Shown one piece after another: positions 8,385 through 40,593 of a stretch of DNA of 64,000 bases. The stretch's first letter is position 1, and the number at the start of each line of letters is the position of its first letter. The position numbers and the translations under genes were made by a program. The stretch is from a candidate division WOR-3 bacterium (GTDB taxonomy: Bacteria; Hydrothermota; Tepidihabitantia; Tepidihabitantales; Tepidihabitantaceae), in the NCBI GenBank assembly GCA_965649295.1, contig CBFGKH010000006.1:117488-181487 (forward strand), given 5' to 3'. The notes under the pieces are model-generated. The model was not told the DNA's origin. It searched no databases and worked only from the letters and a program-made list of their open reading frames with translations.

Positions 8385-8945
8385 CTAGTGCAGCCGCTCC
8401 AGATACTTGCCGGTGGCGACGTCAATCCGAATGCGGTCGCCGTTCTTGATGAACTGCGGCACTAGCACTTCAAGTCCGTTCTCGATTGTCGCCGTCTTCG
8501 GTGCGGCATTGGGATCGCCGTGCAGGGCCGGCCCAGTTGCCGTCACCACCACATCAACTGTCCGCGGCAGAACCGCATCCAGCGGCTCACTGCCCAAAAA
8601 CTCAAACTGCAGTCGGCACCCGTCAGTCACAAACCGCTCGTAGTTGCCAAGCATCTGTCTCGGGATGGCGATATCCTCAAAAGTCTCGGGATGGAGAAAA
8701 TGAAACGTATCGGCATCACGATAAGAGTAGTCCAGCCAGACCGTCTCCACCGCAATGTCCTCAACCTTGGCCTCCGGATGAAGGCGTTGTTCGGTCTGGG
8801 TGTGGGTGCGAAGATTGCGCAGCCGGACATGAACCGAACTCGGCAGCTTGGCCGTCCCGACCTTGAGCTCGGCGTGCAGCACCTTATACAGCTCGCCATC
8901 AATTCGGACACACATCCCATCGCGCAGGTCTGCTGCCTTAATCAT
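8385..8945 (-). CDS. efp: Elongation factor P family protein, divergent loop
   Basis: MIKAADLRDG..IDGELYKV, VRLRNLRT, KTATIENGLEVLVPQFIKNGDRIRIDVATGKYLER. Loop is VGTAKLPS rather than PGKG. Promoter TTGACA-N17-TAGGCT and SD AGGAG. Confidence 0.85.
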   Translation of the reverse strand: MIKAADLRDGMCVRIDGELYKVLHAELKVGTAKLPSSVHVRLRNLRTHTQTEQRLHPEAKVEDIAVETVWLDYSYRDADTFHFLHPETFEDIAIPRQMLGNYERFVTDGCRLQFEFLGSEPLDAVLPRTVDVVVTATGPALHGDPNAAPKTATIENGLEVLVPQFIKNGDRIRIDVATGKYLERLH

Positions 8946-9128: not shown

Positions 9129-9480
9129 AACTTCTGCAAGACAATCGGTTAGGTAGAGCCACCAGTCCTCGAGACCCCCTCCCCGTGGACTGTCCCGGGA
9201 GTGGTCCCCAAAGCTACCCGCAACCCCGCTGGCCGCAGCACTCTCGTAGCCCTTCTCCACTGTCCTTGCCCGCGAGCCTCCAAACCGGCCTGCGCAGGCC
9301 CTTTCTATTGGGTGAGCCATAGTCCTTCGGGCAGCCCCTGCAACAGTGCCTCTGGACAAGCCTCGCCTTCCCCTCGCATCGGCCTTCTCGCCGCTCTCTG
9401 GCCACCTCCTAGGACTTACCCTTAGTAAGCGCTCCGAGCAGCCCCTCGTTGCCCACTCACCAGACCGCCTCCTTGCGGTC
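9129..9480 (+). repeat. Degenerate 12-nt-periodic intergenic array, copy A (conserved head plus about 25 units)
   Basis: Parsed as 12-mers from 9181, 24 of 25 units start with two pyrimidines; head matches the reverse complement of 34884-34960. Confidence 0.75.
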
Positions 9481-9541
9481 CCAACCTTGGTTTGCCGAGA
9501 GCCGTTGTTCTCGGCTCACCTGGTTACTGGCCCTCTGGTTT

Positions 9542-9570
9542 TTGACTTCGCGGCCCGACCCTCCTATCAT
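9542..9570 (+). promoter_or_regulatory. Sigma70 promoter, leaderless configuration
   Basis: TTGACT-N17-TATCAT, 8 nt before ATG 9579; no SD. Confidence 0.65.
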
Positions 9571-13328: not shown

Positions 13329-14243
13329 ATGAATACGGATTCACAGAGTCAAGGGGTCAGGGATTCCGGTCCGGTCGCCGGACTCCTTGCATCCTCGAAT
13401 CCTGGTCTCCTTCTTCGGTTGCGCCATTACGCGAGCGCGGTCTGGGCCGAGAATATCAAAGAGTGGCGGCTCGAACTCACCTACCCAGCCGACTTCGCCC
13501 GCTCGCTCATTGACCCGGTTGTCTATCTCTTGCCGTATCTTCTTTATGGTGTAGCCCTGGTCGGCGGCCGCCAGTCCGAGAACCTGGCAAAGCTCGTCGG
13601 CACATCCGACCTCGTCTCGTTTGTCACGCTCGGCTACATCTTCATCGGCTTCATGAACATGGCCCTCTGGGCGATGGGCTTCTCGCTGCGCAAGGAGCAG
13701 ATGTACGGCACGCTCGAATCGGTCTTTGCCGCGCCGGTGCCGCGTTGGGTCTTCACCATGGGAATGGCGATGCACTCAATCCTGCACCAACTACTGATGA
13801 TTGCAGTGCAGATACTCTTCATCGTCCTCGTCTTCAGCATCCATATCAACCCGCTCGGGCTGCTGCCATCGCTCGCCATTATCGGCCTAATGATGGTCGC
13901 GCTCTATGGCATCGGCATGGTGATGGCTTCAACCACGCTCATCTTCAAGCAGGGCTGGCTCATCTCCGAAGCCCTGGCCAGCATCCTGATGGTAATTACC
14001 CCGATTGCCTACCCGCTGGCAGTACTACCCATCTTTCTCCAGCAGGCAGCCTTGGCCGTGCCCACGACCTACGGCATTCTCACCGCTCGCCATTTCCTCC
14101 TCGGCGAGCAGATGAGTTTCACTATTGCCGATGCGTTCCTTCGCCTCGGCATCCTGTCGGTTATCTGGGTAGCATTCGGCCTTACGGTCTTCACCCTCAT
14201 TGACAGATACACCCGCCGCTCTGGCACCCTCAGTCACTACTAA
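13329..14243 (+). CDS. ABC-2 type transporter permease (second)
   Basis: KEQMYGTLESVFAAP; multiple transmembrane segments; paralog of the upstream permease. Confidence 0.88.
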   Translation: MNTDSQSQGVRDSGPVAGLLASSNPGLLLRLRHYASAVWAENIKEWRLELTYPADFARSLIDPVVYLLPYLLYGVALVGGRQSENLAKLVGTSDLVSFVTLGYIFIGFMNMALWAMGFSLRKEQMYGTLESVFAAPVPRWVFTMGMAMHSILHQLLMIAVQILFIVLVFSIHINPLGLLPSLAIIGLMMVALYGIGMVMASTTLIFKQGWLISEALASILMVITPIAYPLAVLPIFLQQAALAVPTTYGILTARHFLLGEQMSFTIADAFLRLGILSVIWVAFGLTVFTLIDRYTRRSGTLSHY

Positions 14244-14261
14244 TACTATGGCGAGCCGGAC

Positions 14262-15176
14262 ATGAAGAGGATAGCACTAATCGGCGTAACAATGGGCGAC
14301 CCAGCCGGCATCGGGCCTGAGATTCTGCTCAAGGCACTGGCCGCAATGCCCAGGTTCAGGCCGGTCATCTTCGGCTCGCGCGCGGTGCTAGAGAAGGAGC
14401 AGCGCCGACTTGGCACGAGCGTTGACCTGTCACTCGTCCAAGACTGCGCACCCCGACTTGGCCGCTACCAGCTAGGCCGACCACAGAAGAACTGTGGCGA
14501 AGCAGCGTTCGCTTGCCTCGAAGCCGGCGTTACCGCGCTCCGGCAACGCACGATAGCTGCGCTGGTCACTGCCCCAGTATCAAAAGAAGCTCTGCGCCTG
14601 GCCGGGTTTCGCTGGCCAGGCCAGACCGAGTTCCTTGCTGACCGGCTTGGTGCGCGCCACACCGCGATGCTGGCTTGGACCCCGCGGTTCAAGGCGGTCT
14701 TTGTCACAATTCATTTGCCCCTGACCCAGGTCAGCCGTCATCTCACCACCGACGCCGTTGCCGAGAAAGCCCGCCTCCTTCACGAGTTTCTCCAAGCCGA
14801 ACTCGGTCGCAAGCCGCGCATCTGCTGCCTTGCGTTCAATCCCCACGGCTACGAGTTCACCCGGGGCGAAGAGAAGCGAATTGCCGCTGGCGTGAACCTA
14901 GCGCGCCAGGCCGGCATTGATGCTGTTGGCCCGATTCCAGCCGATGCTGCGATCGCCTCCCTTGCCTACGATGGTTTTGTCGCCATGTACCACGAGCAGG
15001 CGATGATTCCGGCCAAGCTGCTGGCCCATGGTCAGGGTGTCAATGTAACACTCGGGCTTGGCCGTATCCGCACTTCGCCCCTGCACGGCACTGCCTTTGA
15101 CATCGCTGGACAAGGCATTGCCAGCCCCAGCTCAATGCTGGCAGCTATTCGCCTGGCCCGGCGCCTCGCTCGCTAG
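14262..15176 (+). CDS. pdxA: 4-hydroxythreonine-4-phosphate dehydrogenase family
   Basis: ITMGDPAGIGPE-like start, TAPVSKE, IHLPL, AMYHEQ, RTSPLHGTAFDIAG. Confidence 0.88.
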   Translation: MKRIALIGVTMGDPAGIGPEILLKALAAMPRFRPVIFGSRAVLEKEQRRLGTSVDLSLVQDCAPRLGRYQLGRPQKNCGEAAFACLEAGVTALRQRTIAALVTAPVSKEALRLAGFRWPGQTEFLADRLGARHTAMLAWTPRFKAVFVTIHLPLTQVSRHLTTDAVAEKARLLHEFLQAELGRKPRICCLAFNPHGYEFTRGEEKRIAAGVNLARQAGIDAVGPIPADAAIASLAYDGFVAMYHEQAMIPAKLLAHGQGVNVTLGLGRIRTSPLHGTAFDIAGQGIASPSSMLAAIRLARRLAR

Positions 15177-18545: not shown

Positions 18546-18553
18546 CGCCGGCG

Positions 18554-19945
18554 CTACTCCTTTGTTCCGGCCAGCAGCGTTCGCGCCTGCTCGACCACTG
18601 CCTCGGCCCGTTCGCGCGTCCTGGCCTCGGCGATTATCCTCAAGAGCGGCTCGGTATTCGACGGCCGCACATGCAGCCAGTAGTCGCTGCCCGCAATGCG
18701 CAGCCCGTCCTGAGTGTCCACGGCGGCGTCAGCGAACCCGGCCAGCAGTTGCGGCGTTCGTTCGGCGAACTCCTCACGCGAGACCGCTAGTGTCGTCTTC
18801 ACCATTTCGTAGTGCGGCAGCCGCTGCCGGATGGCTGACAGCCTCACGTTCGGCTGGCTGAGCAACGCCAGCACTGTCGCGGCTGCGACCAGCCCGTCGC
18901 GAGTCGGGTTGACACTCGGCACAATCACACCACCGTTCCCCTCGCCGCCCAGCACCGCGCCGGTCTCAAGCATTCGCTCCAGCACCGACACTTCGCCGAC
19001 CGGCGTCCGAACCACCTCGGCTCCCAGTGTCCGGCAGACATCTTCGACGGCCCGTGTCGTCGAAAGGTTGACAACCACCTTGGCGCTTTGGCTCTTGGTT
19101 TTTGGCTTTTGGCTTTCGCCTTGGGCTCCGAGTAGGCTCAGGCATGCGAGGCATATCGTCGCTTCTTCTCCCAATGGCGTCCCGGTCTCATCCACGCAAC
19201 TGAAGCGGTCACCGTCCGGGTCGAACGCCAATCCGGCATCCAGCCCCTGCTCCCGCACCACGGTGCAGAGCGTACCCAGGTGCGCTGCCATCGGTTCGGG
19301 TCGGCGCGGAAAACCGTGCTTCATTGTCGCCGGTGACGGATCGCAGTAGATGCACGTCACCTCGTGCCCAAACCTCTCGACCAGTCGCTTCGCCGCCACT
19401 GCCGCTGCCCCATTGGCCGCGTCAATCCCAATGCGCCGCCGCGCGCCGGCTTGCGGACAGATGCCGCTGGCGACAATCGCCGCCACATGCTCGTCAACTG
19501 CCCCACCGTCTGCCTGAACCGGCTGCAGCCCCAGCCAGTCAGTCCGCCGCACCGGCCCACTAGCCCGGGAGCGCAGTTCCTCAATCTCGGCCGGCCGCAG
19601 AAAGGTGCCATCGCTGCGGCAGAACTTCATTCCATTCCAACGGTCGGGGTTGTGGCTGGCAGTGATTACAATACCGCCGGCCAGGTTGTGAGTACGGGTG
19701 TAATACAAAACGGTCGGCGTCGGAACGATACCAAGGTCAACAACCTCACAGCCAACCGAAGCCAGGCCGGCAACTGCCGCGGCCGCAAGCATCTCACCTG
19801 ACAACCGTGAGTCACGTCCCAGCGCCACCCGCTGGCCGACGCGCGTTGACCCGAACGCCGCCGCGAACCGGGTCACTGTTTCGGGAAGCAGGTCATCGCC
19901 GACGACACCACGCAGACCAGAGATGCTGAGAATGGGATGCTGCAC
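18554..19945 (-). CDS. glmM: Phosphoglucosamine mutase / alpha-D-phosphohexomutase
   Basis: ISGLRG, ITASHNP, FDPDGDR, GGEGNGG, VRPSNTEP; adjacent to glmS. Start GTG 19945 lies 7 nt after TTGACC-N17-TATAAT. Confidence 0.85.
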   Translation of the reverse strand: MQHPILSISGLRGVVGDDLLPETVTRFAAAFGSTRVGQRVALGRDSRLSGEMLAAAAVAGLASVGCEVVDLGIVPTPTVLYYTRTHNLAGGIVITASHNPDRWNGMKFCRSDGTFLRPAEIEELRSRASGPVRRTDWLGLQPVQADGGAVDEHVAAIVASGICPQAGARRRIGIDAANGAAAVAAKRLVERFGHEVTCIYCDPSPATMKHGFPRRPEPMAAHLGTLCTVVREQGLDAGLAFDPDGDRFSCVDETGTPLGEEATICLACLSLLGAQGESQKPKTKSQSAKVVVNLSTTRAVEDVCRTLGAEVVRTPVGEVSVLERMLETGAVLGGEGNGGVIVPSVNPTRDGLVAAATVLALLSQPNVRLSAIRQRLPHYEMVKTTLAVSREEFAERTPQLLAGFADAAVDTQDGLRIAGSDYWLHVRPSNTEPLLRIIAEARTRERAEAVVEQARTLLAGTKE

Positions 19946-30106: not shown

Positions 30107-31630
30107 CTATTGCAGCGGGCCGACTGCCTGTTCAACAGCGGCGAGCAGTTCGCCTTGCCGCACCGCCGCAGTGAGACGGTTGATGTCCTCTTGCACCGGT
30201 CGGTCCTCAACCATCATCGCCACATGCTTGCGGATGACATCGTAGGCAACCTGCGTGCCACGGCCCAACCGCAGCGGCTTGCGGAACTCGACTGCCTGGG
30301 CGCCGGCCATCAGCTCGATGGCGACGACATACCAGGCGTTGTTCTGAATCTGGGCCGTCTTCAGGGCGCTAGTGAAGGCCATCGAGACAAAGTCTTCCTG
30401 GTCGGCGGCGGCCGGTATCGAACCGGTGGCGGCGGGCGCGGCAAGAATCCGGTTCTCGCAGCAGAGCATACCTTGGGTGTACTGGGTGAGCATCAGGCCG
30501 GAGAACATACCCGCGCCCTTGGTGAGGAACGCAGGCAGGCCGCAGGAGAGGTTGCGGTTGAGCAGCCGGTTGGTCCGGCGCTCGCTGAGCACGCCAATCA
30601 TCGTGATGCATGAGCCGACGAGGTCGAGCGGCAGCGCAAGCGGCGTGCCCTGGAAATTGGCGCCGGTCAGGTAGGCCTTCTCGTCCGGGAAGAAGAGCGG
30701 GTTGTCGCCGACGCCGTTCAGTTCGGTCTCAAACATCTGCCGCGCCCAGCTCAGGGCATCCTTGGCACTGCCGACCACCTGCGGGGTTGAGCGGAGCGAG
30801 TAGGCGTCCTGCACCTTCTTGCCCGGCTGCTTGAGCAGCTCGGAGTCGGCGGTCAGCTTGCGGATGTTGGCAGCGCAGTTTATTGCGCCGGGATAGCCGC
30901 GCACCCGGTGAATCCGCTCGTCATAGGCAGCCATGTTCGCATTGAGAACCTCAAGGGTCAGGGCCGCGGCGATCTCCGAGACTTTGAAGTAGTGGTCGGC
31001 ATCACAAAGCTGCAGCGCGCCCCAGCCGGCCGTCATGTTCGAGCCGTTGATGCAGGCCAGGCCGTCGCGGGCCTCAAACTGTATCGGCTTGATACCGGCC
31101 GCTTTGAGTGCCTCGGCGCCGCCCAGCCGCCGGCCCTGATAGTAGGCCTCGCCTTCGCCGAGCAGAACCAGCGCCATCTGGCTCATCGGTGAGAGGTCGC
31201 CGCACGCGCCGACCGAACCCTTGTCATAGACGACCGGCGTCACGCCCTTGTTGAGCATCTCGACCATTGTCTCGACAACCTTCAGCCGAATGCCGGAGTG
31301 GCCAATTGCCAGTACGTTGATGCGCGAGCACATGCCGGCCCGCACCACCTCTTCGGGCAGCGGCACGCCGCAACCGGCCGAGTGCGAATAGACGATGTAG
31401 CGCTGGAACTTCTCGGTCTGCTCCGGGGTGAGGATTGTCTCCGACAGCTCGCCGATGCCGGTGGTGATACCGTACATCACTGCCCGCGCCTTCACCTTCT
31501 CCTCGATGAAGCCCCGACAGTGGTTGATCCGTTCCTTGGCTTCGGGCGCGAGCTCAACCGGCTCGCGCTGCCGCGCCACCCGCACAACATCCTCAAGCTT
31601 CAGGCTCTTGCCATTGAGAATAACTGCCAC
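30107..31630 (-). CDS. hutH: Histidine ammonia-lyase (MIO-dependent aromatic amino acid lyase)
   Basis: YGITTGIG, YSHSAG (His-type specificity), GSVGACGDL, QDAYSLRSTPQV, DNP, QEDFVSM. GTG 31630 after SD GGAGG. Confidence 0.88.
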   Translation of the reverse strand: MAVILNGKSLKLEDVVRVARQREPVELAPEAKERINHCRGFIEEKVKARAVMYGITTGIGELSETILTPEQTEKFQRYIVYSHSAGCGVPLPEEVVRAGMCSRINVLAIGHSGIRLKVVETMVEMLNKGVTPVVYDKGSVGACGDLSPMSQMALVLLGEGEAYYQGRRLGGAEALKAAGIKPIQFEARDGLACINGSNMTAGWGALQLCDADHYFKVSEIAAALTLEVLNANMAAYDERIHRVRGYPGAINCAANIRKLTADSELLKQPGKKVQDAYSLRSTPQVVGSAKDALSWARQMFETELNGVGDNPLFFPDEKAYLTGANFQGTPLALPLDLVGSCITMIGVLSERRTNRLLNRNLSCGLPAFLTKGAGMFSGLMLTQYTQGMLCCENRILAAPAATGSIPAAADQEDFVSMAFTSALKTAQIQNNAWYVVAIELMAGAQAVEFRKPLRLGRGTQVAYDVIRKHVAMMVEDRPVQEDINRLTAAVRQGELLAAVEQAVGPLQ

Positions 31631-31673
31631 GTTATTGCCTCCGTATGAGTCGGCGCTGCCACGGCGCCGGGTC

Positions 31674-32438
31674 TTATTCGTTCGGACTCGGGCGCCGGTC
31701 TTCGGGCCGACGCCGGGGCGGAACCGAGCGCCGGACCGGCGGCCGGGTTCGCTTCTCCATGTCCGCCACATGGCTGCCCGGCCAGAATACCTTGCGGCAT
31801 TTCGGACAGCGGCGGAACTCGTAGTGAATCTGATAGACAAAGAACGGCACCTGGGGCCGCGCCTGCTCGCGGGTGATCTTCTCCAGCGGCGTGTTGCACT
31901 CCAGACAGCGGCCAAACTCGGCCGTCGGCTGGATTGGCTCCTCGCGCCGGGGTCGGACCTCGCGGCGGTGCTCATATCGCCGCTGGTCGCTACGACGGTG
32001 CCCGGCTGACTCCGGTTGGGCCGGCAGGGGCAGGGCAGCCAGCGGTGCTACTGACGGCAGGGACGGAGCCGGAACGGCGGACGGCTGTTCCTTGACCGGC
32101 ACCGGCGGCTTGAGACCACTAGCCAGCGCTGCCTTGACCTCGGCAACCTGCTCTGCCGCTGCCGTGGAGTTGATGAACACAACCCCTGCCAGCTCGCGCA
32201 GCCGATTGGCCCGGGTCAGAAGAATCCGGCCCTGCTGCCGGGCTACCCGATAGGCAGCCATACCGGCAAGGTTGCGCTCGTAGGCTACATCCATCCCCAA
32301 AAGCCGCAGCTCGCGCGCCAGCTTGCCCAGCATCACATCACACAGAAACCCAACCACGGCCGGGTCTTTGGGTGGCGGTACGCGGCGCGAACGGCGGCGG
32401 CTGGGCGACCGCTCCGCGGCCGGAACGTTCTCTGTCAC
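31674..32438 (-). CDS. Mut7-C RNase domain protein (PIN-like fold plus Zn ribbon) with Pro/Arg-rich insertion
   Basis: FLCDVMLGKLARELRLLGMD, ILLTR, RCLECN..CPKCRKVFWPGSH. GTG 32438 lies 8 nt after TTGATT-N16-TACAGT. Confidence 0.85.
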   Translation of the reverse strand: MTENVPAAERSPSRRRSRRVPPPKDPAVVGFLCDVMLGKLARELRLLGMDVAYERNLAGMAAYRVARQQGRILLTRANRLRELAGVVFINSTAAAEQVAEVKAALASGLKPPVPVKEQPSAVPAPSLPSVAPLAALPLPAQPESAGHRRSDQRRYEHRREVRPRREEPIQPTAEFGRCLECNTPLEKITREQARPQVPFFVYQIHYEFRRCPKCRKVFWPGSHVADMEKRTRPPVRRSVPPRRRPEDRRPSPNE

Positions 32439-32584
32439 TGACCGATACTGTAGCACAAACCAGTCCGAAATCAAGCGGCGTGGCCGCAACCGGAAAAACC
32501 GGCAAGCGACCAGACCGATTCCTGCCGCAACTGGCCGGCGCGCTGGGCCGGTTCGCTCACCGCCTCGATTGCTTGACCTCTGCC

Positions 32585-32701
32585 GGTTGCGACGCTAGAT
32601 TATGGCCAAAGACCGTTCCGAGTGACCATGAAAGAGTTGCTCTCCTGGGCTTCTGCCCAGGAGGGTTGCGACGCTAGATTATGGCCAAAGACCGTTCCGA
32701 G
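32585..32701 (+). repeat. Perfect 38-bp direct repeat flanking a 41-bp hairpin-containing spacer
   Basis: ggttgcgacgctagattatggccaaagaccgttccgag at 32585-32622 and 32664-32701; spacer contains ctcctgggc-ttct-gcccaggag. Confidence 0.9.
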
Positions 32702-32708
32702 AGGCACT

Positions 32709-33194
32709 GTGAATACCAAAGAGCGTCTGGTCCGACTTGCCGCGATTGCGGTGCTGACCGCCATCTTCCTCGGTGCCTGTGCGCCGGGCAATGCCCGCTG
32801 GTCAACCGAAACCGGCCGCCCGGCCAACTTCTGGGCCGGTCTCTGGCACGGCCTGATAGTCGTTGTCACCTTCATCGTCAGCCTCTTCACCAAGGAAGTG
32901 AAGATCTACGAGACGAACAATGTCGGCTGGGCCTACAACCTCGGTTTTCTCCTCGGCGCAATGGTCTCCTTGGGCGGCGGTGCCCGCTCGGCCTGCCACC
33001 GGCGACGGCGCGAACCGGACTGGGAGCGCATTGGCGAAAAGATCGCCGGCGCGGTTCGGGCTCAGGTCCTGCGCGACGAGTTCAAGCCCAAGGCCAGTCC
33101 TGACCAGCGCTCCGGCGCTGACGACTGGGACGAGTTCAGCCGCCGCATTGAGGACTGCATCCGCACCGAGTTCAAAAAGAAGTGGGATGACTAG
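32709..33194 (+). CDS. Conserved hypothetical membrane lipoprotein
   Basis: GTG after GAGG; lipobox FLGAC; FWAGLWHG..IYE.NN.GW.Y.LGFLLG. Confidence 0.7.
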   Translation: MNTKERLVRLAAIAVLTAIFLGACAPGNARWSTETGRPANFWAGLWHGLIVVVTFIVSLFTKEVKIYETNNVGWAYNLGFLLGAMVSLGGGARSACHRRRREPDWERIGEKIAGAVRAQVLRDEFKPKASPDQRSGADDWDEFSRRIEDCIRTEFKKKWDD

Positions 33195-33195
33195 C

Positions 33196-34437
33196 ATGGC
33201 TGGCAGCAAGTTTCGCCGTCGGCGGTCATTCTGCTCCCCGTGGTCAGCCCTCTGGACTATCGCCGCTGCTTTCGGCCTGCTGTTCGCCCCGGCTCGCGCT
33301 GCCCGCTTTCTTGGCGAGCAGTCCTACACCCTGCCCGCCAATGAGACCCGCATCGGCGACTTCTACTTTGGCGGCACGATGCTCCGCATCGAGGGCCGCC
33401 TTGACGGCTCCTGTCTAGCCGCTGCCCAGTCTATCACCATCGCTGGCCCGGTCTCCCGCAACCTCTTCCTCGCTGCCCAGACAGTTGACGTCTCCGGTGC
33501 TGCCGGCGGCGATGTTGCCTGTCTGGCAGCGACAGTCAACTTCACTGGCCGCACTCCCGCTGCCTTGCGCGTCGGCGCCGGTTCGGTCTATGTTGACGGC
33601 GCTGTTGGCCAGGACCTGCTGGCGGGTTGCGGCAATCTGACAATCGCCAAAAACTCCGAAATCAAGGGCGACCTTTTGGCAGGCTGTCGGTCACTGGAGA
33701 TCGCCGGCACAATCCGCGGCGACGTCCGCGCCGTGGCCAGAGAGATCACCATCGCCGGCACAATTGACGGCGACGTCGAGGTGACGGTCGCTGACCGGCT
33801 GACTCTGGGGCCAGACGCCCGGGTTTACGGCAACCTGCGCTACCGTTCGAGCAAGAAGCTCGACCTCGGCAACCCCGACCTCGTGTTCGGCAATATCGAA
33901 CACATCCGGCTCGAATCGCCCCGTGACGTCGATGACATCCGCAGCCTGCGGCCGCGGCCGAGCATGTTTGTCACCTTCCTGCTGCCGCTCACCCTCTTCT
34001 CAATTCTCGGCGCCTTGGTCGTTGGCTTTCTGCTCATCGCCATCTGGCAGCACGTCATCGCCCAAGCGCTCGAACGCTCAATAAACCACTGGGTGCGCAC
34101 GTTCGGCTTTGGCCTCATCGGCTTTCTGATTGGGCCAATGAGCATCATTATCGGCCTTGCCCTGATTATCACCATTCCGGCCGCACTGATTGCCGGTGTC
34201 GCCTATCTTGTCTTTCTCTATGTCGGCAAGGTACTGGCCGGCATGTTCCTCGGCAAGCTCCTCTTTCGCATCTTTGGCGCACCCGATGTCTCGCTCTGGG
34301 CCGCCGCGCCGCTGGGCATCGTGATTGTCTGGGCCCTCTGCGCCATCCCTTACGTCGGCATGGTCATCTGGCTCGCAGCCATCGCCTTGGGCTTCGGTGT
34401 CATCGCCGAACTTATCGGCATGTCCCGCCAGCCCTGA
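33196..34437 (+). CDS. Bactofilin-like (polymer-forming) beta-helix repeats plus multi-pass membrane C-terminal domain
   Basis: Repeats I.G.V.GD(L/V)..AA..V.I.G; hydrophobic C-terminal half; ATG 33196 directly after the upstream stop. Confidence 0.75.
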   Translation: MAGSKFRRRRSFCSPWSALWTIAAAFGLLFAPARAARFLGEQSYTLPANETRIGDFYFGGTMLRIEGRLDGSCLAAAQSITIAGPVSRNLFLAAQTVDVSGAAGGDVACLAATVNFTGRTPAALRVGAGSVYVDGAVGQDLLAGCGNLTIAKNSEIKGDLLAGCRSLEIAGTIRGDVRAVAREITIAGTIDGDVEVTVADRLTLGPDARVYGNLRYRSSKKLDLGNPDLVFGNIEHIRLESPRDVDDIRSLRPRPSMFVTFLLPLTLFSILGALVVGFLLIAIWQHVIAQALERSINHWVRTFGFGLIGFLIGPMSIIIGLALIITIPAALIAGVAYLVFLYVGKVLAGMFLGKLLFRIFGAPDVSLWAAAPLGIVIVWALCAIPYVGMVIWLAAIALGFGVIAELIGMSRQP

Positions 34438-34566
34438 GTCCAAGATTTCTCTTGCGTTAGCAGCTCCACTCTCCTTGCCCGCACCCTCCTGTCGTCCCAA
34501 GATGGTGGTTGCTGCGGTGGTGGTGGCGACGGCGATGGTTCCCACTCTCCTTGACCGTACGTTCCT

Positions 34567-34603
34567 GTCATTCCGAGACCGCGCAGCGGTCGAGGAATCG
34601 CCG
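34567..34603. repeat. REP/dRS3-like palindrome, copy 2
   Basis: gtcattccgagaccgcgcagcggtcgaggaatcgccg; same termini as 16612-16648. Confidence 0.65.
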
Positions 34604-34630
34604 GTCCTAGCCTGAGCAAAGCCAGGCCAC

Positions 34631-34960
34631 GAGACTAGCCGGTATCGGCTGAAGCCTATCCTGCCAGCCTGTTGCGAAGAAATCGGCCAGGACTCTCGAT
34701 GGCAGCCTCTCTAGGACAGCTACCGGGAGCTGCGCTGGCCTCTCTGCTAGGCCTCGCGCAAACTCAGCCCGAAGCTCTGCCGCCGGCATTCCCGGAAACC
34801 GGTCTAGTGGCACCATCGTCAGCAGCAGCGGCAACTGGACCAAGAAGCGAGACACTGACCGCCTCGCTGAGGTGCTCGACAGGAGCTGGGGAGACCATTC
34901 CGGGGACAGTAGAGTGGGAGTGGGTCGTATCGAGTCTAGCCGATTGACTGCTCAGAAGTT
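34631..34960 (-). repeat. Degenerate 12-nt-periodic intergenic array, copy B
   Basis: Parsed as 12-mers from 34631 on the plus strand, 23 of 24 units end in two purines; head matches copy A in reverse complement. Confidence 0.75.
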
Positions 34961-35147
34961 AGGCCTCGCGACCGCCGGCAACAGCCGACACCACCGATTC
35001 TCTCTGCTCCGTTTGGCCATTCAGGCAGCATAACAATAATAGGGCCGCGCTCGGGCCACTACCCGCTCGCCGCCGAAATCCAGGCCAACCTCGCTATATC
35101 GCTCAGGCCCAGGCCGGTTCCGGCTCCCAGCCGATTGCCGGCACCGC

Positions 35148-35768
35148 CTAGCCCTTGGCCTGACCGAGCCGACCGAAGTAGGCTGCTTTCTCAATCGCCC
35201 GAGCGATGTCAACCTGCTCAACATGAACACCGGGCCGAACCCGCAAGAACACCGGCGCAAAGTTGACGATCGCCCGGACCGAAACCGCTGTCAGGGCATC
35301 GGCCACTGCCTGAGCCCGCTCGGGCGGCACCGCAATCACCCCCAGCCCTGGCCCGAGCTCGACCGCCCGACTCGGCAACTGGGCTACATCCCAGCACGGG
35401 CAACCGGCAAAAGTTCGGCCAATCTTGGCTGGGTCAATGTCAAAGGCAGCGACAAAGTGAATCTGCGTTTGCGGCCCGCCGAAATGCTCAAGCAGGGCCC
35501 GGCCGATGTTGCCGACACCGACGAGCACTGCCGGCACGCCCGCCGGCGCATCGAGAATCCTGGCAAAATTGTCAAGCAGGTAGCTCGTCCGGTAGCCACT
35601 GCCCGGACTTCCCTTGATGCCGGCCACCATCAGGTCGCGCCGCACCTGGGCTGGCGACACTCGGGCCAGGGCCGCGAGCTGGTGCGAAAAAACATAGGCC
35701 GGCCGAAAATCACCGAGCACCCGGCGATAGAGGATCAGCCGCTCAACTGTCCGGCTGGGAATAGTCAT
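35148..35768 (-). CDS. rex: Redox-sensing transcriptional repressor Rex
   Basis: IP..TVERL.LY.R.L, QVRRDL, G..G.GY, Rossmann GVGNIG, FDIDPAKIG, IVNFAP. Alternative start GTG 35777. Confidence 0.88.
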   Translation of the reverse strand: MTIPSRTVERLILYRRVLGDFRPAYVFSHQLAALARVSPAQVRRDLMVAGIKGSPGSGYRTSYLLDNFARILDAPAGVPAVLVGVGNIGRALLEHFGGPQTQIHFVAAFDIDPAKIGRTFAGCPCWDVAQLPSRAVELGPGLGVIAVPPERAQAVADALTAVSVRAIVNFAPVFLRVRPGVHVEQVDIARAIEKAAYFGRLGQAKG

Positions 35769-35881
35769 ATTGCTCACGCCGATTATAACCGCCTCCTGCC
35801 GGCGGCTGTCAAGTCGCGCCCGCACTCCTGCCCATTGACGAACTGGCCGCTGGGTGTATCTTAGAACCTTGCCCTACGGCC

Positions 35882-37210
35882 ATGAGCGAATCAGAAACTC
35901 ACATCCAGGAAGACATTGACAGCGGCCTGCCCAGCGCTGCTGTCCAGATGGTGCTCGACGACCTAAAGCAACTCTGGCTGTCCGGCAAATCACTCTTCGA
36001 GGTCCTTGACGTCGTCTATGAGACAATGCGGCACATCATCCCGTTCGACCGCCTCTCGGCCGCATTCTACAACGAGGAGACCGGTCTTGTTGTCTCCCGC
36101 TGGGTACGCAGCAGCCTGCCCGTCCAACACGTCGGCAAAGGCTACTGGGCCGAACTGAAAGGCTCGTCGCTTGAGCCGATTCTGCGCACCGGCCAGCCGC
36201 GCATCATCAATGACCTCGAAAAGTACCTAATCGAGCATCCCGATTCCCGCGCCACTCAAGACATCCTCAAGGACGGCATTCGCTCCAACCTCACCTGTCC
36301 GCTTACTGCCGGCGGCCGGCCCATCGGCTTCCTCTTCTTTGCCTCGACGCGACCGGCAACCTACCGCCGCGAGCATATCGAGACATTCCAGGCCGTTGCC
36401 GAATCGCTCTCGCTGGCCGTGGAGAAGGTCAAATACATTGACGACCTTGAACAGGCCAAACGCAACTACGCCCAGCTCCTCTTCTTTGTCGCCCACGAAC
36501 TTAAGTCCCCGCTCTCCGCCATCGTCACGCTCGGCGACACGCTGCTGGGCGGCTATCTCGGCCAGCTCACCCCGGCCCAAGCCGACAAGGTTCGCCGGAT
36601 GGTCGCCAACTCCAACTACCTCATCAACCTTGTCCGCGACTACCTTGACCTGGCCCAGATTGAAGCCGGCGAGATGAGCTACCATCCACAGCCGGCCGTT
36701 GACCTGGTCGAGGACGTCTTCCGACCCGTGCTCGACATCCAGGCGCCGTCGGCCCAACAGCGCCGGATGCGCATCGAGACCGACCTCGAATACCTCACTG
36801 CGCCCTGCGACCCCCAGCTTATCAAGGTCGTCGCCAACAACCTGCTCAGCAACGCCATCAAGTATGGTCGCGAGGGCGGCACCATCACCGTTCGGCTGGT
36901 GCGCCGGGCCTACTCCGACTTCACCGCTGCCGGCCGCGTCGAACGGGCTTGGTGGGCGGTTTTCTCGGTACGCAACGATGGTGTCGGCTTCACCCCAGAA
37001 CAGAAACAGCAACTCTTTGCCCGGTTCCGCCGCCTCCACAACCCTGAGCACAAAGGCGTTGCCGGCTCCGGTCTCGGCCTCTATATCTCGCGCCAAATAA
37101 TAGTCAAGCACGGCGGCGAGATTACCGCCGACTCCGAACCCGGCGAGTGGGCCGAGTTCCGCTTCCGCATCCCGCTCCGGCAGGAATCGCCGGCCAGCCC
37201 AATTACCTAG
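35882..37210 (+). CDS. Soluble GAF-HisKA-HATPase sensor histidine kinase
   Basis: GAF (CPL..GG..IGFL.F.S), H-box AHELKSPL, N-box NLLSNAIKY, G-boxes DGVG and GSGLGL; no transmembrane segment. Confidence 0.92.
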   Translation: MSESETHIQEDIDSGLPSAAVQMVLDDLKQLWLSGKSLFEVLDVVYETMRHIIPFDRLSAAFYNEETGLVVSRWVRSSLPVQHVGKGYWAELKGSSLEPILRTGQPRIINDLEKYLIEHPDSRATQDILKDGIRSNLTCPLTAGGRPIGFLFFASTRPATYRREHIETFQAVAESLSLAVEKVKYIDDLEQAKRNYAQLLFFVAHELKSPLSAIVTLGDTLLGGYLGQLTPAQADKVRRMVANSNYLINLVRDYLDLAQIEAGEMSYHPQPAVDLVEDVFRPVLDIQAPSAQQRRMRIETDLEYLTAPCDPQLIKVVANNLLSNAIKYGREGGTITVRLVRRAYSDFTAAGRVERAWWAVFSVRNDGVGFTPEQKQQLFARFRRLHNPEHKGVAGSGLGLYISRQIIVKHGGEITADSEPGEWAEFRFRIPLRQESPASPIT

Positions 37211-37225
37211 TCAGTCGCGCCGCAC

Positions 37226-37254
37226 TTGACTGCTGCCCGCTCCAACCGTAACCT
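37226..37254 (+). promoter_or_regulatory. Sigma70 promoter, leaderless configuration
   Basis: TTGACT-N17-TAACCT, 8 nt before ATG 37263. Confidence 0.6.
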
Positions 37255-37262
37255 GAAACACT

Positions 37263-37649
37263 ATGGCCAAGGCGAAGATTCTGGTTGTTGACGACGAGCC
37301 GCCGCTGCGCCTGCTCGTCCAGAAGATTCTTGAGCTCGACGGCTACGCCGTCAAGACGGCGGCCAGCGGCATGGACGCACTAAAGGAAGTCCGCCGTGAG
37401 CAGCCCGACCTGGTCATTCTCGACCTCTCCATGCCCGGCATTGACGGCTTCGCCACCTGCTCGATGCTCAAACGCGACTCCAACTTCCGCGCCCCGGTCA
37501 TTGTTCTTTCGGCCCGCATCGGCGAGCGGGACATCCTCCAGGCCAAAGAGGCTGGCTGCGATGCCTTCATCCATAAGCCAGTCAAACGCGAAGAACTGCT
37601 CGCCAAGGTCGCCGAGCTCTTGGCCGCCAAACCGACCCCGGCCGAATAG
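37263..37649 (+). CDS. Single-domain response regulator (CheY-like receiver)
   Basis: ILVVDDE, DLVILDLSMPGIDG, LSA, KP; no output domain. Confidence 0.93.
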   Translation: MAKAKILVVDDEPPLRLLVQKILELDGYAVKTAASGMDALKEVRREQPDLVILDLSMPGIDGFATCSMLKRDSNFRAPVIVLSARIGERDILQAKEAGCDAFIHKPVKREELLAKVAELLAAKPTPAE

Positions 37650-37653
37650 CCGC

Positions 37654-38223
37654 CTAGGCCTGGTCTCGCAGTCGCTTTGCTAGTTCCCGGCCGTAGGCCA
37701 AGGCCTGTTCGCGAATGAGTCGGTTCTTACGCAGCGCCGGCAGATTCGGACAGTTGGCCACCACGTGCTGGCCTAAGTAATCCACCCCGACAAACCGGGC
37801 CGTGGCCGCGAACATGTGAACTGCCAGGTCAGCACCGTCAAAGTGGTCACCGCCGGCGGTCAGCACCAAGGCCCACTTACTACCGCGCAACAGCCCTTCA
37901 CCGGTCATCAGGGCAAACGTGCGGTCGAGCACGGTCTTGGTCTGAGCAGTGACGTTCCAGCAGAAAATCGGGCTCGCCCAGATGACGAGGTCAGCGTCCA
38001 CGAGCTTGTCGTAAAGCTCGACCATATCATCTTCCTGGGCACAGCCAGCCGCCTGCTTCGACTTGGTGCAAGTGAGACACTCAACACAACCGTTGATATT
38101 AAGCTCACAAATACGGACCCGTTCGGCCCGTATCCCGCGACCCATGCCGGCAATCACCCAGTCCAGCACCGTGGCGGTGTTGCCCTGCCGCGGGCTGCCT
38201 TCGAGTACCAGTACCTTCTTCAT
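37654..38223 (-). CDS. Flavodoxin-like NADPH-dependent FMN reductase / iron-sulfur flavoprotein
   Basis: GSPRQGNT, CVECLTC..C cluster motif, ASPIF. Confidence 0.88.
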   Translation of the reverse strand: MKKVLVLEGSPRQGNTATVLDWVIAGMGRGIRAERVRICELNINGCVECLTCTKSKQAAGCAQEDDMVELYDKLVDADLVIWASPIFCWNVTAQTKTVLDRTFALMTGEGLLRGSKWALVLTAGGDHFDGADLAVHMFAATARFVGVDYLGQHVVANCPNLPALRKNRLIREQALAYGRELAKRLRDQA

Positions 38224-38328
38224 TTGGCTGCTCCTCTCGGTTCTGGTTCAATCATCCTGCCGCCTTGGGCCAAGTCAATCGCTGCCGGCGCGAATTGACT
38301 AGCCAGTCCGAACCGCTATATCTCTTGC

Positions 38329-39081
38329 GTGCCCGCTGCCAAGCGACCACTCATCCTACTGACCAACGACGACGGCATCGAGGCCCCTGGCCTCCGCGAC
38401 CTCTATGCCGGCCTGCGCAACCTGGGTCGGGTCTGGGTCGTGGCTCCGGCTGTCAACCAGTCCGCTTCCAGCCATTCCTTCAGCCTCCGTAAGCCGATTC
38501 GGGTCTGGCGCCTCCGGCCGCGCTGGCTGGCAGTCCACGGCACCCCCACCGACTGTCTCTTGATATCCCATCACGGCATCCTCCGGCGAGAGATTGACCT
38601 AGTCTTCTCCGGCATCAACGACAGCCCCAATCTCGGTGACGACGTCCTCTACTCCGGGACGGTCGCCGCTGCCATCGAAGGCACAATGCTCGGTATGCCG
38701 TCGGTCGCGGTCTCCTATGTCAACGCCGGCAGCAACCGCGACGTTGCCCTGCGACTGCTGCGCGGCCTGGTACCACTGCTCCTGGACGGCATTCTGCCCA
38801 AGAAATCGCTGCTCAATATCAACATCCCGGCTGAGCCGGTCAAGGGCATCCGGGTCACCCGCCTGGGCAAGCGCATCTACCGCGACATGGCCATCAAGCA
38901 CTCGCTGCCTGACGGCGCGGTCTCTTGGACAATTGACGGCGAGATGGGTTTTGATCACGTGCCCGGCTCGGACTTTGAGGCGGTTTACTCCGGCTTTGTC
39001 TCCATCACCCCGCTCCACCTTGACATGACCCATCACGCCGAAATCGCCCGGCTGCAGAAGGTGTTGGGCCGGCTGCTTTGA
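38329..39081 (+). CDS. surE: 5'/3'-nucleotidase SurE
   Basis: ILLTNDDGI, APAVNQSASS, GTPTDC, SGIN..NLG.DVLYSGTVAAA, ITPL.LDMT. Confidence 0.95.
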   Translation: MPAAKRPLILLTNDDGIEAPGLRDLYAGLRNLGRVWVVAPAVNQSASSHSFSLRKPIRVWRLRPRWLAVHGTPTDCLLISHHGILRREIDLVFSGINDSPNLGDDVLYSGTVAAAIEGTMLGMPSVAVSYVNAGSNRDVALRLLRGLVPLLLDGILPKKSLLNINIPAEPVKGIRVTRLGKRIYRDMAIKHSLPDGAVSWTIDGEMGFDHVPGSDFEAVYSGFVSITPLHLDMTHHAEIARLQKVLGRLL

Positions 39082-39105
39082 CACTCGGCCCGCTGCCTCT
39101 ATAAT
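39078..39105 (+). promoter_or_regulatory. Consensus sigma70 promoter, near-leaderless
   Basis: TTGACA-N16-TATAAT, 9 nt before ATG 39115. Confidence 0.7.
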
Positions 39106-39114
39106 TCCGCCACC

Positions 39115-39660
39115 ATGACACGTCAAGAGGCTTGGGCACTGGTCCAGTCGCGGGTGCAGAACCGCAACCTGCAAAAGCACATGCTCGCAACCGAGGCCTG
39201 CCTGCGCGGTCTTGCCCGCCGCCTGGGCGAGGACGAAGAACTGTGGGGCTTGGCCGGACTCCTCCACGACGTTGACTACGAGGAGACCAAAAACGACACC
39301 TCCCAACACGGCATCCTTGGCGCCGAGTTGCTCCAGTCGCTCGGCATCGAGCCGGCCGTCGTCCATGCCGTCCGCGCCCATGTCGGCAACGTGCCGATTA
39401 CCTCAAAGCTCGATCGGGCACTCTTTGCTGCCGACCCGATAACCGGGTTGATTGTCGCGGCGGCGCTGATGCACCCGACCAAGCGGCTGGCCAACGTTGA
39501 CACTGACTTCGTGCTTCGCCGTTACCAAGAGAAGAAATTCGCGGCCGGGGCCAACCGCGAGCAGATTGCCACCTGCTCCGAACTCGGCTTCAGCCTTGCC
39601 GACTTTACCGCCATCTGCCTCGCGGCGATGCAGACCGTCGCCGCCGACCTGGGACTCTGA
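39115..39660 (+). CDS. HDIG/HD-domain metal-dependent phosphohydrolase
   Basis: KHMLATE, GLLHDVDYE, AHV, FAADP. Confidence 0.88.
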   Translation: MTRQEAWALVQSRVQNRNLQKHMLATEACLRGLARRLGEDEELWGLAGLLHDVDYEETKNDTSQHGILGAELLQSLGIEPAVVHAVRAHVGNVPITSKLDRALFAADPITGLIVAAALMHPTKRLANVDTDFVLRRYQEKKFAAGANREQIATCSELGFSLADFTAICLAAMQTVAADLGL

Positions 39661-39729
39661 TGCCCCGCCTCCAGCTTCGCCTTCTCATTCACCATCTGGC
39701 ATTCTGCAGCTTGCCCTTTGGCCGCTGAC

Positions 39730-40593
39730 ATGGCATCGCTTTCGTTCCAGGACATCATTCTCCGGCTCCAGACCTACTGGGCCGAACGCGGTTGCGCCAT
39801 CCTCGCGCCCTACAACTCCGAGGTCGGCGCCGGCACCTTCAACCCCGCCACCTTCATCCGCGTCCTCGATTCGCAGCCGTGGAACGTCGTCTATTGTGAA
39901 CCGTCCAAGCGACCCCGCGATGGCCGCTATGCCCAGAACCCGCTCCGGGTTCAGCAGTTCTGGCAGTTGCAGGTGATACTCAAGCCGGCACCGGCCGATG
40001 TTCAGGACCAATACTTGCACAGCCTTGCCGCCATCGGCATTGACCTCAAGGCCAACGACATCCGCTTCACTGAGGACGACTGGGAATCACCCACTCTCGG
40101 CGCCTGGGGCCTGGGCTGGCAGGTCGAACTGAACGGCATCGAGATTACCCAGTTCACCTACTTCCAACAGTGCGGCAGTATTGACCTGAGAATAATTCCG
40201 GTCGAAATCACCTACGGTCTGGAGCGGATTGCGATGTTTGTCCAGAACGTTGACTCTATCTTCGCTGTCCGTTGGAACGACAAGCTGACCTGGGGCGACG
40301 TCTATCGGTTGAATGAAGAGGAGTTCTCAAAGTTCAACTTCGAGGAGGCCGATGTTGACCTCTACCGGACAATGTTCGACCGCTTCGAGGCCGAGGCCCA
40401 GCGCCTGCTCAAGCTCGGCCTGGTGATGCCCGGCTACGACCACGTCATCAAGTGCTCCCACTTCTTCAACCTGCTCGAGGCCCGCGGCGCCATCTCGGTC
40501 TCCGAGCGCCGCAACTACATCAACCGGGTCCGGCGCCTGGCCCGCCTCACCGCCACCACCTACCTGCAAAAGGTCGAGCCCGAGAACAAGTAG
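39730..40593 (+). CDS. glyQ: Glycine-tRNA ligase alpha subunit
   Basis: [64 protein letters not shown]. Confidence 0.97.

Follow-up and report, generated by a model that had tools for sequence, protein, structure and literature searches.

Two non-coding arrays of 12-nucleotide units that keep their length and register in a candidate division WOR-3 bacterium

The window studied here (the whole stretch of 64,000 nucleotides) carries two non-coding arrays, copy A and copy B, whose bodies follow the same rule every 12 nt without a common sequence. In related hot-spring populations (∼89 to 95% DNA identity), both arrays occupy the same loci with identical unit numbers and the same register, most of their positions drift at a near-neutral rate, one triplet per unit changes more slowly, and the hairpins that follow them are kept by compensatory changes. 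Judged from these comparisons, selection acts on length and register, on a core and the hairpins, and, to a mild degree, on one triplet in each unit, but not on the other nine positions; such a pattern is the signature of a spacing device. Our preferred reading, to which we assign a probability of about 0.45, is that the arrays are ruler-like docking tracks, probably read as the RNA of the pyrimidine strand, for an oligomeric protein that takes up 12 nt per subunit.

The relatives of the EF-P and Rex proteins place the genome in candidate division WOR-3. Orthologous contigs were reached through the cluster mates of these two proteins in two hot-spring samples: L126 and L129 come from the first sample, and L127 (∼91% DNA identity to the window) and L128 (∼89%) come from the second. 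Four runs of hot-spring metagenomes that hold close relatives (X1 to X4) were also included, and the scope of the comparison is two paralogs in three to four related populations.

Two arrays with one 12-nt rule

Copy B is a conserved element of ∼400 bases on the minus strand (34966 to ∼34560), in which positions 34926 to 34627 form 25 contiguous 12-nt units, and copy A lies on the plus strand. The features of the two elements and of their surroundings are the following.

35047 to 35147, unstranded: remnant of the 3′ end of a TPR gene; the convergent TPR gene is intact in the relative L126
34967 to 35046, minus strand: spacer ahead of the copy B head, fast-diverging (71% identity to L127, with indels), with an AT-rich patch, TATTATTGTTATGCT
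34927 to 34966, minus strand: 5′ head box of copy B, beginning TAACTTCTGAGCAGTCAATCGGCTAG, at the sharp 5′ edge of the conserved element
34879 to 34926, minus strand: core head of copy B, 48 nt in four 12-nt units, GACCCACTCCCA CTCTACTGTCCC CGGAATGGTCTC CCCAGCTCCTGT
34627 to 34878, minus strand: array body of copy B, 21 further 12-nt units, with 17.9% divergence from L127 and no indel
34607 to 34855, minus strand: spurious open reading frame of 82 amino acids with a GTG start, in the YYN phase of the array
34600 to 34626, minus strand: first hairpin 3′ of array B, GGCCUGGC...CUCAGGCU, kept in L127, with a G-U pair that forms only on the Y strand
34570 to 34598, unstranded: REP-like palindrome, ATTCC-GA-GACCGC-GCA-GCGGTC-GA-GGAAT, the second closing hairpin of copy B
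34464 to 34578, plus strand: two short core-head-like modules (34466 to 34502 and 34542 to 34578), forming direct repeat D1 on the strand opposite to the array
9137 to 9496, plus strand: copy A, composed of a 5′ box, a core (9173 to 9220), and a body, with 27 units in all
9494 to 9515, plus strand: hairpin directly 3′ of array A, GCCGAGAGC-CGUU-GUUCUCGGC, with a fold z score of −3.3

The only recurring signal in copy B is an S-Y-Y triplet (G or C followed by two pyrimidines) at unit positions 8 to 10, and the remaining nine positions are free. We refer to the strand that bears the pyrimidines as the Y strand, which for copy B is the minus strand. The first-pass annotation had described the same rule from the plus strand as 12-mers, cut from 34631, that end in two purines and begin with C or G, and our recount agrees with it at 23 of 24 units for each property. 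On the Y strand the first pyrimidine is present in 24/24, the second in 23/24, and the preceding S in 23/24 units, and over all 25 units the YY pair is present in 23. The corresponding values in copy A are 27/27, 25/27, and 23/27 units. C and T are used about equally at the Y sites (the second pyrimidine is C or T in a ratio of 13:12 in copy A and 11:12 in copy B), and purines are excluded on one strand only. The information content amounts to ∼3 bits per 12-nt unit.

The two copies share a head. That they could be aligned there had been proposed before, and the alignment is real: the core sequence GACCCnCTCCCnnTnnACTGTCCCnGGAnTGGTC is found only at 9173 to 9206 on the plus strand and at 34893 to 34926 on the minus strand, within the two heads. 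The core makes up the first 4 of the 25 units of copy B and already has the register of the array, and the register between core and array is identical in the two copies. The 5′ head box of copy B aligns with positions 9129 to 9172 of copy A, where it lies 10 nt farther from the core. Two short modules on the opposite strand also resemble the core head of copy B. Between the words CCACTCT and TCCTGTCG, which it has in common with the head, the module at 34466 to 34502 is shorter by 12 nt (by our count), and the sequence CTCCACTnTCCTTGCCCGC of these modules recurs inside array A at 9255.

Outside the heads, the first-pass annotation had noted different sequences with a common phase, and the alignment of the bodies bears this out. 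The in-register identity of the A and B bodies is 33%, within the range of 29 to 36% obtained when one body is shifted by 12 or 24 nt; the period is therefore common to the two copies and the sequence is not. Within each array the mutual identity of the units equals the expectation from column shuffling, and no higher-order repeat is present. A recent tandem repeat was rejected, as adjacent units are no more similar to each other than shuffled units. With bodies that cannot be aligned and no sign of recent tandem duplication, the period is not the leftover of a young repeat.

The two arrays are the strongest 12-nt-periodic regions within the 64-kb window. Their four-base period-12 power is 3.0 to 4.2, compared with a maximum of 1.68 over 409 coding windows of 288 nt. 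A pattern of 13 consecutive SYY-N9 units closed by a further SYY has eight overlapping matches in the window, all of them in copies A and B, and had none in any of 100 dinucleotide-preserving shuffles.

Genomic setting of the arrays

Copy B lies between convergent genes and next to a REP-like palindrome, as had been noticed from the sequence at the outset. The flanking genes encode a bactofilin-domain protein (32920 to 34437, plus strand) and Rex (rex, 35148 to 35825, minus strand), and the palindrome at 34570 to 34598 is a single copy in the 64-kb window. Copy A is flanked by efp (8385 to 8945, minus strand) and by a GT4 glycosyltransferase gene with its own promoter (TTGACT-17-TATCAT). Both arrays are co-directional with a neighboring gene, copy B following rex and copy A preceding the GT4 gene. 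No intrinsic terminator was found in the copy B gap, and no convincing promoter was found ahead of either head. Within the head, neither a sigma-70 nor an ECF-type promoter could be placed with confidence, and the sole promoter-like match near the spacer of the copy B head is on the plus strand (35013 to 35040).

The two copies are inversely oriented and 25 kb apart, with their heads outward and their arrays inward. The DNA between them encodes an ABC transporter, pdxA, purH, glmS, histidine ammonia-lyase, and other housekeeping functions, and no transposase or integrase was found in these 25 kb. Partner protein candidates near either copy were also sought, and the search returned nothing suggestive: no partition gene, no capsid-like gene, and no other candidate DNA-binding gene. 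A replication origin, terminus, or fork barrier was rejected as the role of the arrays, given a GC skew that is negative across the whole window without a switch.

Colinearity with L126 breaks just outside copy B. This contig is 95.0% identical to the window from 35047 to 39987 and then continues as the TPR gene, for which no other match was found in the 64-kb window. The break is most simply explained by loss of the TPR gene in the lineage of the window, with ∼100 nt of its 3′ end kept. In the L126 population, another contig carries a B-like copy together with its spacer.

Conservation of length and register between populations

Contig L127 is colinear with the window from 31172 to 38295 and has array B; L128 has array A, L129 has the first 114 nt of array A, and both arrays are also borne by the X1 to X4 contigs. 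The first-pass annotation had proposed to compare other copies for unit number, indel length, and purifying selection on a reading frame, and it had named indels in steps other than 12 or 3, or an ordinary conserved reading frame, as grounds for refuting a structural constraint. The unit number is identical between orthologs, and the orthologs of B (L127) and A (L128, L129, and X1 to X3) are without any internal indel. Copy B differs from L127 by 50 substitutions over 300 sites and copy A differs from L128 by 59 substitutions over 324 sites, with no indel in either comparison; in X1, copy B shows 39 differences over 289 nt without a gap, and several variants of A, from different strains in X1 and X2, are likewise gap-free.

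In a single global alignment, the elements contribute 791 sites with 140 substitutions and 0 internal indels, the only indel being at the 5′ edge (34966), while other intergenic DNA in the same alignment contributes 1,714 sites with 253 substitutions and 13 indels. The number expected inside the elements is six to seven, compared with the 0 observed (Poisson P, ∼0.001 to 0.003). In substitution rate the bodies match 4-fold degenerate sites: divergence is 17.9% in copy B and 19.9% in copy A, against 17.1% at 4-fold sites (108/630) of five neighboring genes. Most positions of the bodies are therefore free to change, while their length is not.

The S-Y-Y triplet is the exception among these positions, having changed ∼40% less often, at 22 of 156 sites compared with 105 of 468 sites elsewhere in the units, a difference of marginal significance (odds ratio, 0.57; P = 0.029). 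Transversions that break the pattern at the two Y sites (5/104) show no significant deficit relative to those elsewhere (39/520; P = 0.41), which reflects either weak selection on YY or too few data. The YY pair is kept in 23 of 25 units in copy B, 22 of 25 in L127, 25 of 27 in copy A, and 23 of 27 in L128, and the exceptions are mostly T-G.

The remaining parts of the elements are conserved to different extents. The core head of copy B is 89.6% identical to L127, a value exceeded only by that of the 3′ hairpins (94%); the core of copy A is 91.7% identical to L128. The 5′ head box is 82.5% identical to L127 in copy B and is poorly kept in copy A (61% identity to L128), and the spacer ahead of the copy A head has 53% identity between orthologs, with indels. 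The 5′ edge of copy B at 34966 is visible in all four metagenome runs, as homology of the X1, X2, X3, and X4 contigs ends or falls there.

In ∼150 kb of sequence from WOR-3 relatives whose EF-P is 65 to 74% identical, no comparable array was found; the distribution of the element is thus limited to a narrow lineage. Searches with the head returned 0, then 95 and 45 matches among public genome contigs, all of them chance matches in unrelated taxa, together with 3 chance matches in metagenome contigs, which are inside genes, and 13 in viral contigs.

The arrays do not encode a protein

The first-pass annotation had observed a minus-strand frame that is open in copy B and stopped in copy A, and it had preferred a structural constraint to an ordinary open reading frame. 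The frame (34607 to 34855) exists and copy A has 2 to 3 stops in the equivalent phase; the preference for a structural constraint is supported. Alternatively, the arrays could be a gene for a small protein built of four-residue repeats (P/L/S/F-x-x-x), still intact in copy B but decayed in copy A; this reading draws on a frame that is open for 114 codons, on a period-3 power at the median of coding windows, and on a GC content by codon position of 0.69/0.53/0.67 that resembles that of real genes (0.64/0.50/0.73).

With YY at codon positions 1 and 2, the composition itself nearly forbids stops in the phase of the open reading frame. Column-shuffled copy B arrays have no stop with a probability of 0.40, and copy A has 2 stops in the YYN phase compared with 1.2 expected from composition. 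The frame is stopped three times in L127, the stops in A (2) and in L128 (3) fall at different places, and all stops are lineage specific. The period-3 power of copy A is in the lowest 2% of coding windows, and the coding-like power of copy B reflects the internal makeup of the unit. A true tetrapeptide repeat (P-A/V-V-T) does occur in another WOR-3 genome, L118, and is the only strongly 12-periodic stretch in the ∼150 kb of WOR-3 relatives scanned; its period-3 power equals its period-12 power, and it serves as a negative control for a coding 12-nt repeat. The four residues P, L, S, and F have only the YYN form of their codons in common and do not form a chemical class.

The comparison with orthologs is decisive and shows that the arrays are non-coding. 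Substitutions in the arrays fall on the three codon phases as 48/41/38, compared with 8/2/33 in rex, 6/2/57 in the histidine kinase gene, and 5/3/29 in efp, so that changes in the arrays are without codon phase while 77 to 88% of those in the neighboring genes are at third positions. No frame of the arrays is under purifying selection, and an ordinary conserved reading frame fails as the explanation of the period. No start codon opens a frame that covers the array. The 114-codon frame has no relative in 5.8 billion clustered proteins (word-based search) or in 1.84 billion representatives (HMMER), and no match to Pfam or PHROGs was found for it; its codon usage score (−0.10) is near the bottom of that of real genes, and the AlphaFold2 model of the reading frame at 34607 to 34855 is uninformative (pLDDT, 66).

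Hairpins, folding, and strand

RNA folding had also been suggested as a check on the arrays. The body of the array is neither more nor less structured than shuffled sequences (z, −0.85 to +0.76), and a structured RNA was rejected for it on this basis, whereas the 3′ hairpins are stable and compensated. The fold of 34555 to 34632, downstream of copy B, has a z score of −2.3. Each array has a 3′ hairpin with one compensatory change on both sides of the stem between orthologs: in the palindrome at copy B an A:U pair of the window is replaced by G:C in L127, and in the hairpin of array A the stem is kept in L128 by a change from G:C to C:G. The G-U pairs in these hairpins would be A-C mismatches on the opposite strand. 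The head has just one 7-pair stem common to the two copies, without covariation. Rfam covariance models run over the whole window gave nothing at the gathering score, only chance-level matches to eukaryotic long noncoding RNAs (E value, ∼1).

Proposed function and alternatives

We propose that the track is read on one strand, most probably as RNA transcribed from the pyrimidine strand. The RNA of copy B would have the same direction as rex and extend to the hairpins, short of the convergent gene, and that of copy A would run toward the GT4 gene and its separate promoter. The reader would be an oligomeric or filament-forming protein that occupies exactly 12 nt per subunit and accommodates one pyrimidine dinucleotide in a purine-excluding pocket; the conserved core may start the assembly in a fixed register, and the hairpins may terminate the transcript or the assembly. 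We infer all three elements of this proposal, namely, the reading as RNA, the reading by a protein, and the choice of protein. Three indirect points favor a single-stranded reading of the Y strand: the rule holds on one strand, the compensated hairpins contain G-U pairs, and the arrays are co-directional with neighboring genes. A rule of “C or T, never a purine” on one strand would suit a single-stranded pocket better than read-out in a duplex groove.

The observation that A and B obey the same rule without a common sequence is more simply explained by a rule that has been maintained for a long time than by separate generation of the two arrays through a process that imposes it. The weak signal at the YY pair is compatible with such long maintenance, as the same picture would result from nearly neutral selection acting on each of ∼25 redundant sites. 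As a more specific and more doubtful step, hot-spring WOR-3 bacteria may carry a class of stand-alone tracks of ∼300 nt, each with a head and ∼25 units in exact 12-nt register, that template an as yet undescribed assembly, either a nucleoprotein filament or stacked rings, with one subunit per 12 nt. Such an assembly could read almost nothing other than the spacing and one pyrimidine pair, and its protein could be an extended form of Rho or another protein. A literature search for 12-nt periodic arrays in bacteria returned nothing relevant.

The main rival is a docking array of double-stranded DNA, on which a protein would polymerize in 12-bp steps after nucleation at the head. Exact 12-bp steps have precedents in TubR on tubC and in the capsid dimers of filamentous archaeal viruses (12 bp each). 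A head followed by phased units of low information resembles systems that nucleate and spread, and length and register are conserved. The pyrimidine rule fits this reading less well, as the acceptance of any pyrimidine and the exclusion of purines on a fixed strand would be hard to read in the grooves of a duplex, and the compensated hairpins with their G-U pairs point to RNA. The surroundings speak against it too, for neither copy has a partition, capsid-like, or other candidate DNA-binding gene nearby, and the two copies are oppositely oriented, with ordinary housekeeping genes between them and no GC-skew switch. We consider the duplex reading unlikely.

A concrete version of the RNA reading, which we hold to be quite unlikely, is a rut-type super-site for the loading of Rho, in which Y-strand RNA would feed the pockets of the Rho hexamer. 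At gene boundaries without U-tract terminators, the arrays would then cause strong Rho-dependent termination or act as insulators. To our knowledge, Rho is the only well-studied bacterial machine with a pyrimidine-dinucleotide geometry of the 12-nt type. The placement of the arrays agrees with this role, since copy B is downstream of and co-directional with rex, ahead of a convergent gene and in a gap in which no intrinsic terminator was found, and copy A is ahead of a gene with its own promoter. The pockets of Rho bind 5′-YC and accept linkers of 9 to 13 nt between dimers, and 12 to 13 nt per subunit have been estimated from crystal structures (PMC6144790). This geometry and spacing fit the arrays, in which a 10-nt linker separates the pyrimidine pairs, but the preference for YC does not, as C is not more common than T at the second pyrimidine. 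Base composition is similarly split: on the Y strand copy A is rich in C and poor in G (C, 138; G, 73; 27 units), whereas in copy B the two bases are balanced, without C>G skew (C, 91; G, 90; 24 units). Rho tolerates variable spacing, so a strict 300-nt register with zero indels would be unexpected, the conserved core head would have no role in a rut site, and ∼25 sites are four times what one hexamer needs. Given these misfits in skew, C preference, phase, and core, Rho is kept as a sub-hypothesis only, as one candidate partner of the proposed RNA track.

We rank next, as improbable, the possibility that the arrays are functionless relics, made once by expansion, by a templated process, or from a dead repeat gene and now drifting, with the missing indels due to luck or to a scarcity of slippage-prone sites. 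Drift is compatible with a body divergence at the neutral rate, with five YY-breaking changes observed where ∼6.5 would be expected from the transversion rate elsewhere, and with the absence of the elements from more distant relatives. Neutral decay of YY would, on the other hand, make the arrays at most about twice as old as the split between the strains, and the A and B bodies are without a common sequence, so each would need a separate recent generator. The relic reading is further opposed by the 0 internal indels in 791 nt against 13 in neighboring intergenic DNA, by the slower triplet (P = 0.029), by the 90 to 92% conservation of the core, and by the compensation in the adjoining hairpins.

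The last two readings, transposon ends and a coding repeat, are essentially excluded. It is highly improbable that the two copies mark, in inverted orientation, the ends of a mobile element or an invertible segment of 25 kb: their heads point outward and their arrays inward, and the break of synteny with L126 is only 80 nt outside the head of B, but the DNA between them holds housekeeping genes without a transposase or integrase, L127 and L128 have the elements at the same loci, and the break is more simply a loss of the TPR gene, given that a B-like copy with its spacer is also present in the L126 population. The small repeat protein considered above is the least credible of all, given the absence of codon phase and the stops in orthologs.

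Nearly all known non-coding elements are recognized by a conserved sequence or by a base-paired structure, and the arrays keep neither. What they keep is a ruler: the number of units, an exact step of 12 nt, and a single pyrimidine pair at each step. Searches by homology or with covariance models, as commonly run, are blind to a constraint of this type, so elements like these could be widespread and yet have escaped notice. If the track is indeed read by a protein assembly, this would be a new way to measure along a nucleic acid in bacteria, and it would give a handle on the control of gene boundaries in a candidate phylum without cultured members.

Comparison with known systems

Cyanobacterial STRR heptamers, Xanthomonas GGGAATC arrays, and REP/BIME elements are intergenic repeats found at gene ends, sometimes with palindromes, but their units are recognizable and change rapidly in copy number, whereas the units described here are dissimilar and fixed in number between strains. 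The ToxI elements of type III toxin-antitoxin systems are tandem conserved repeats of ∼34 to 45 nt upstream of an endoribonuclease gene; a ToxI-type array was rejected, as the 12-nt units are unrelated in sequence and no endoribonuclease gene adjoins them.

Among RNA targets of multisubunit readers, the (G/U)AG arrays bound by TRAP in the Bacillus trp leader and the CsrB/RsmZ sponges also present many short motifs separated by free spacers. The TRAP arrays have 9 to 11 (G/U)AG triplets with spacers of 2 to 3 nt, whereas the period here is 12 nt and no NAG triplet rule applies; CsrB and RsmZ display GGA in hairpin loops at irregular spacing, whereas the recurring motif here is S-Y-Y and hairpins are not periodic. 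Neither system has an exact 12-nt register over 300 nt or a head.

Filament tracks on DNA offer a further comparison. In TubR-tubC, ParR-parC, and the omega heptads, contiguous phased units serve as the track of a protein filament, and those of TubR-tubC are 12 bp long; copies B and A likewise consist of contiguous units of this length (25 and 27). These iterons differ in having a conserved unit sequence, adjacent partition genes, and duplex read-out, while the arrays keep 3 of 12 positions, have no partition genes (adaptor or NTPase) nearby, and follow a strand-specific rule. The DnaA-trio beside a DnaA box shares with the arrays a nucleation site followed by a single-strand motif of short period and low information that guides a filament. 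The DnaA-trio has a period of 3 nt and belongs to a replication origin, whereas the arrays bear no mark of an origin, such as a GC-skew switch.

The rut sites of Rho are not locked in register, have no conserved head, extend over ∼60 to 80 nt, need a C>G skew, and prefer YC, whereas in the arrays 25 to 27 sites are exactly phased and a core is conserved, copy B is without skew, and the second site shows no preference for C. The two are alike in lying at gene ends or in leaders and in carrying little sequence information, and both would present, on a single-stranded RNA (in the arrays, by our proposal), pyrimidine dinucleotides every ∼11 to 15 nt to the subunits of an oligomer.

Variation and possible exchange within the arrays

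Array A is polymorphic within one hot-spring population but constant in length: assemblies of close relatives (metagenome runs X1 and X2) split it (over 9257-9465) into several overlapping short contigs whose mutual differences are substitutions only. A module is present both inside array A and next to array B, and a promoter follows array A:

9255-9273 (+), module CTCCACTnTCCTTGCCCGC, inside array A
34464-34578 (+), two copies of module CTCCACTnTCCTTGCCCGC, beside array B
9542-9570, near-consensus promoter TTGACT-17-TATCAT, immediately downstream of array A, ahead of the glycosyltransferase (GT4) gene

Both module copies beside array B lie on the strand opposite to it and are similar to its core head (the first four units), and between the words common to both, the first of them falls exactly 12 nt short of the head. 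These observations suggest that pieces are swapped in register. The promoter is kept in L128, the contig of a related population that carries array A, and the GT4 gene behind the array therefore has a promoter of its own.

Surroundings of array B

The following features were recognized on the two sides of array B:

about 32573-32702, direct repeat of ~38 nt (GGTTGCGACGCTAGATTATGGCCAAAGACCGTTCCGAG), two copies ~78 nt apart, 5' of the bactofilin-domain gene
35047-35147, 3'-end remnant of a convergent TPR gene, making up the 100 nt that follow the stop of rex

The remnant was identified by comparison with L126:4858-5367, from a relative with 95% identical DNA in which the TPR gene is intact; colinearity between the two sequences breaks off precisely at 35047, a point 80 nt outside array B's head. 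On the other side, the first GGTTGCGACGCTAGATTATGGCCAAAGACCGTTCCGAG copy is preceded by TTGACC at promoter spacing to TAGATT, and the repeat region (~32573-32702) holds a cluster of 6 of the 13 intergenic indels relative to L127, the related contig colinear with the array B region.

Other features of the window

A simple gene finder called no gene in an 818-nt gap at 18546-19363. The sequence there is coding-like on the minus strand, and the gap may represent a gene that is broken or was missed. Over nearly the whole 64 kb the GC skew is negative (about -0.1), independent of gene orientation, with the exception of two short stretches (26-32 kb and 58-64 kb of the window).

Comparison with a coding 12-nt repeat

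A 12-nt repeat is also found in a more distant WOR-3 genome, UBA2258:

14236-14575 (minus) of L118 (contig DDXO01000086.1), coding tetrapeptide repeat, at least 27 tandem units CCCGCnGTsAYn

Translated, these units give a P-(A/V)-V-(T/S/I/M) repeat at the C terminus of a protein truncated by the contig end. This is a true coding repeat, since the units vary at third positions and period-12 power equals period-3 power. The first five unit positions (YYnSC) are common to this coding repeat and the non-coding arrays A and B.
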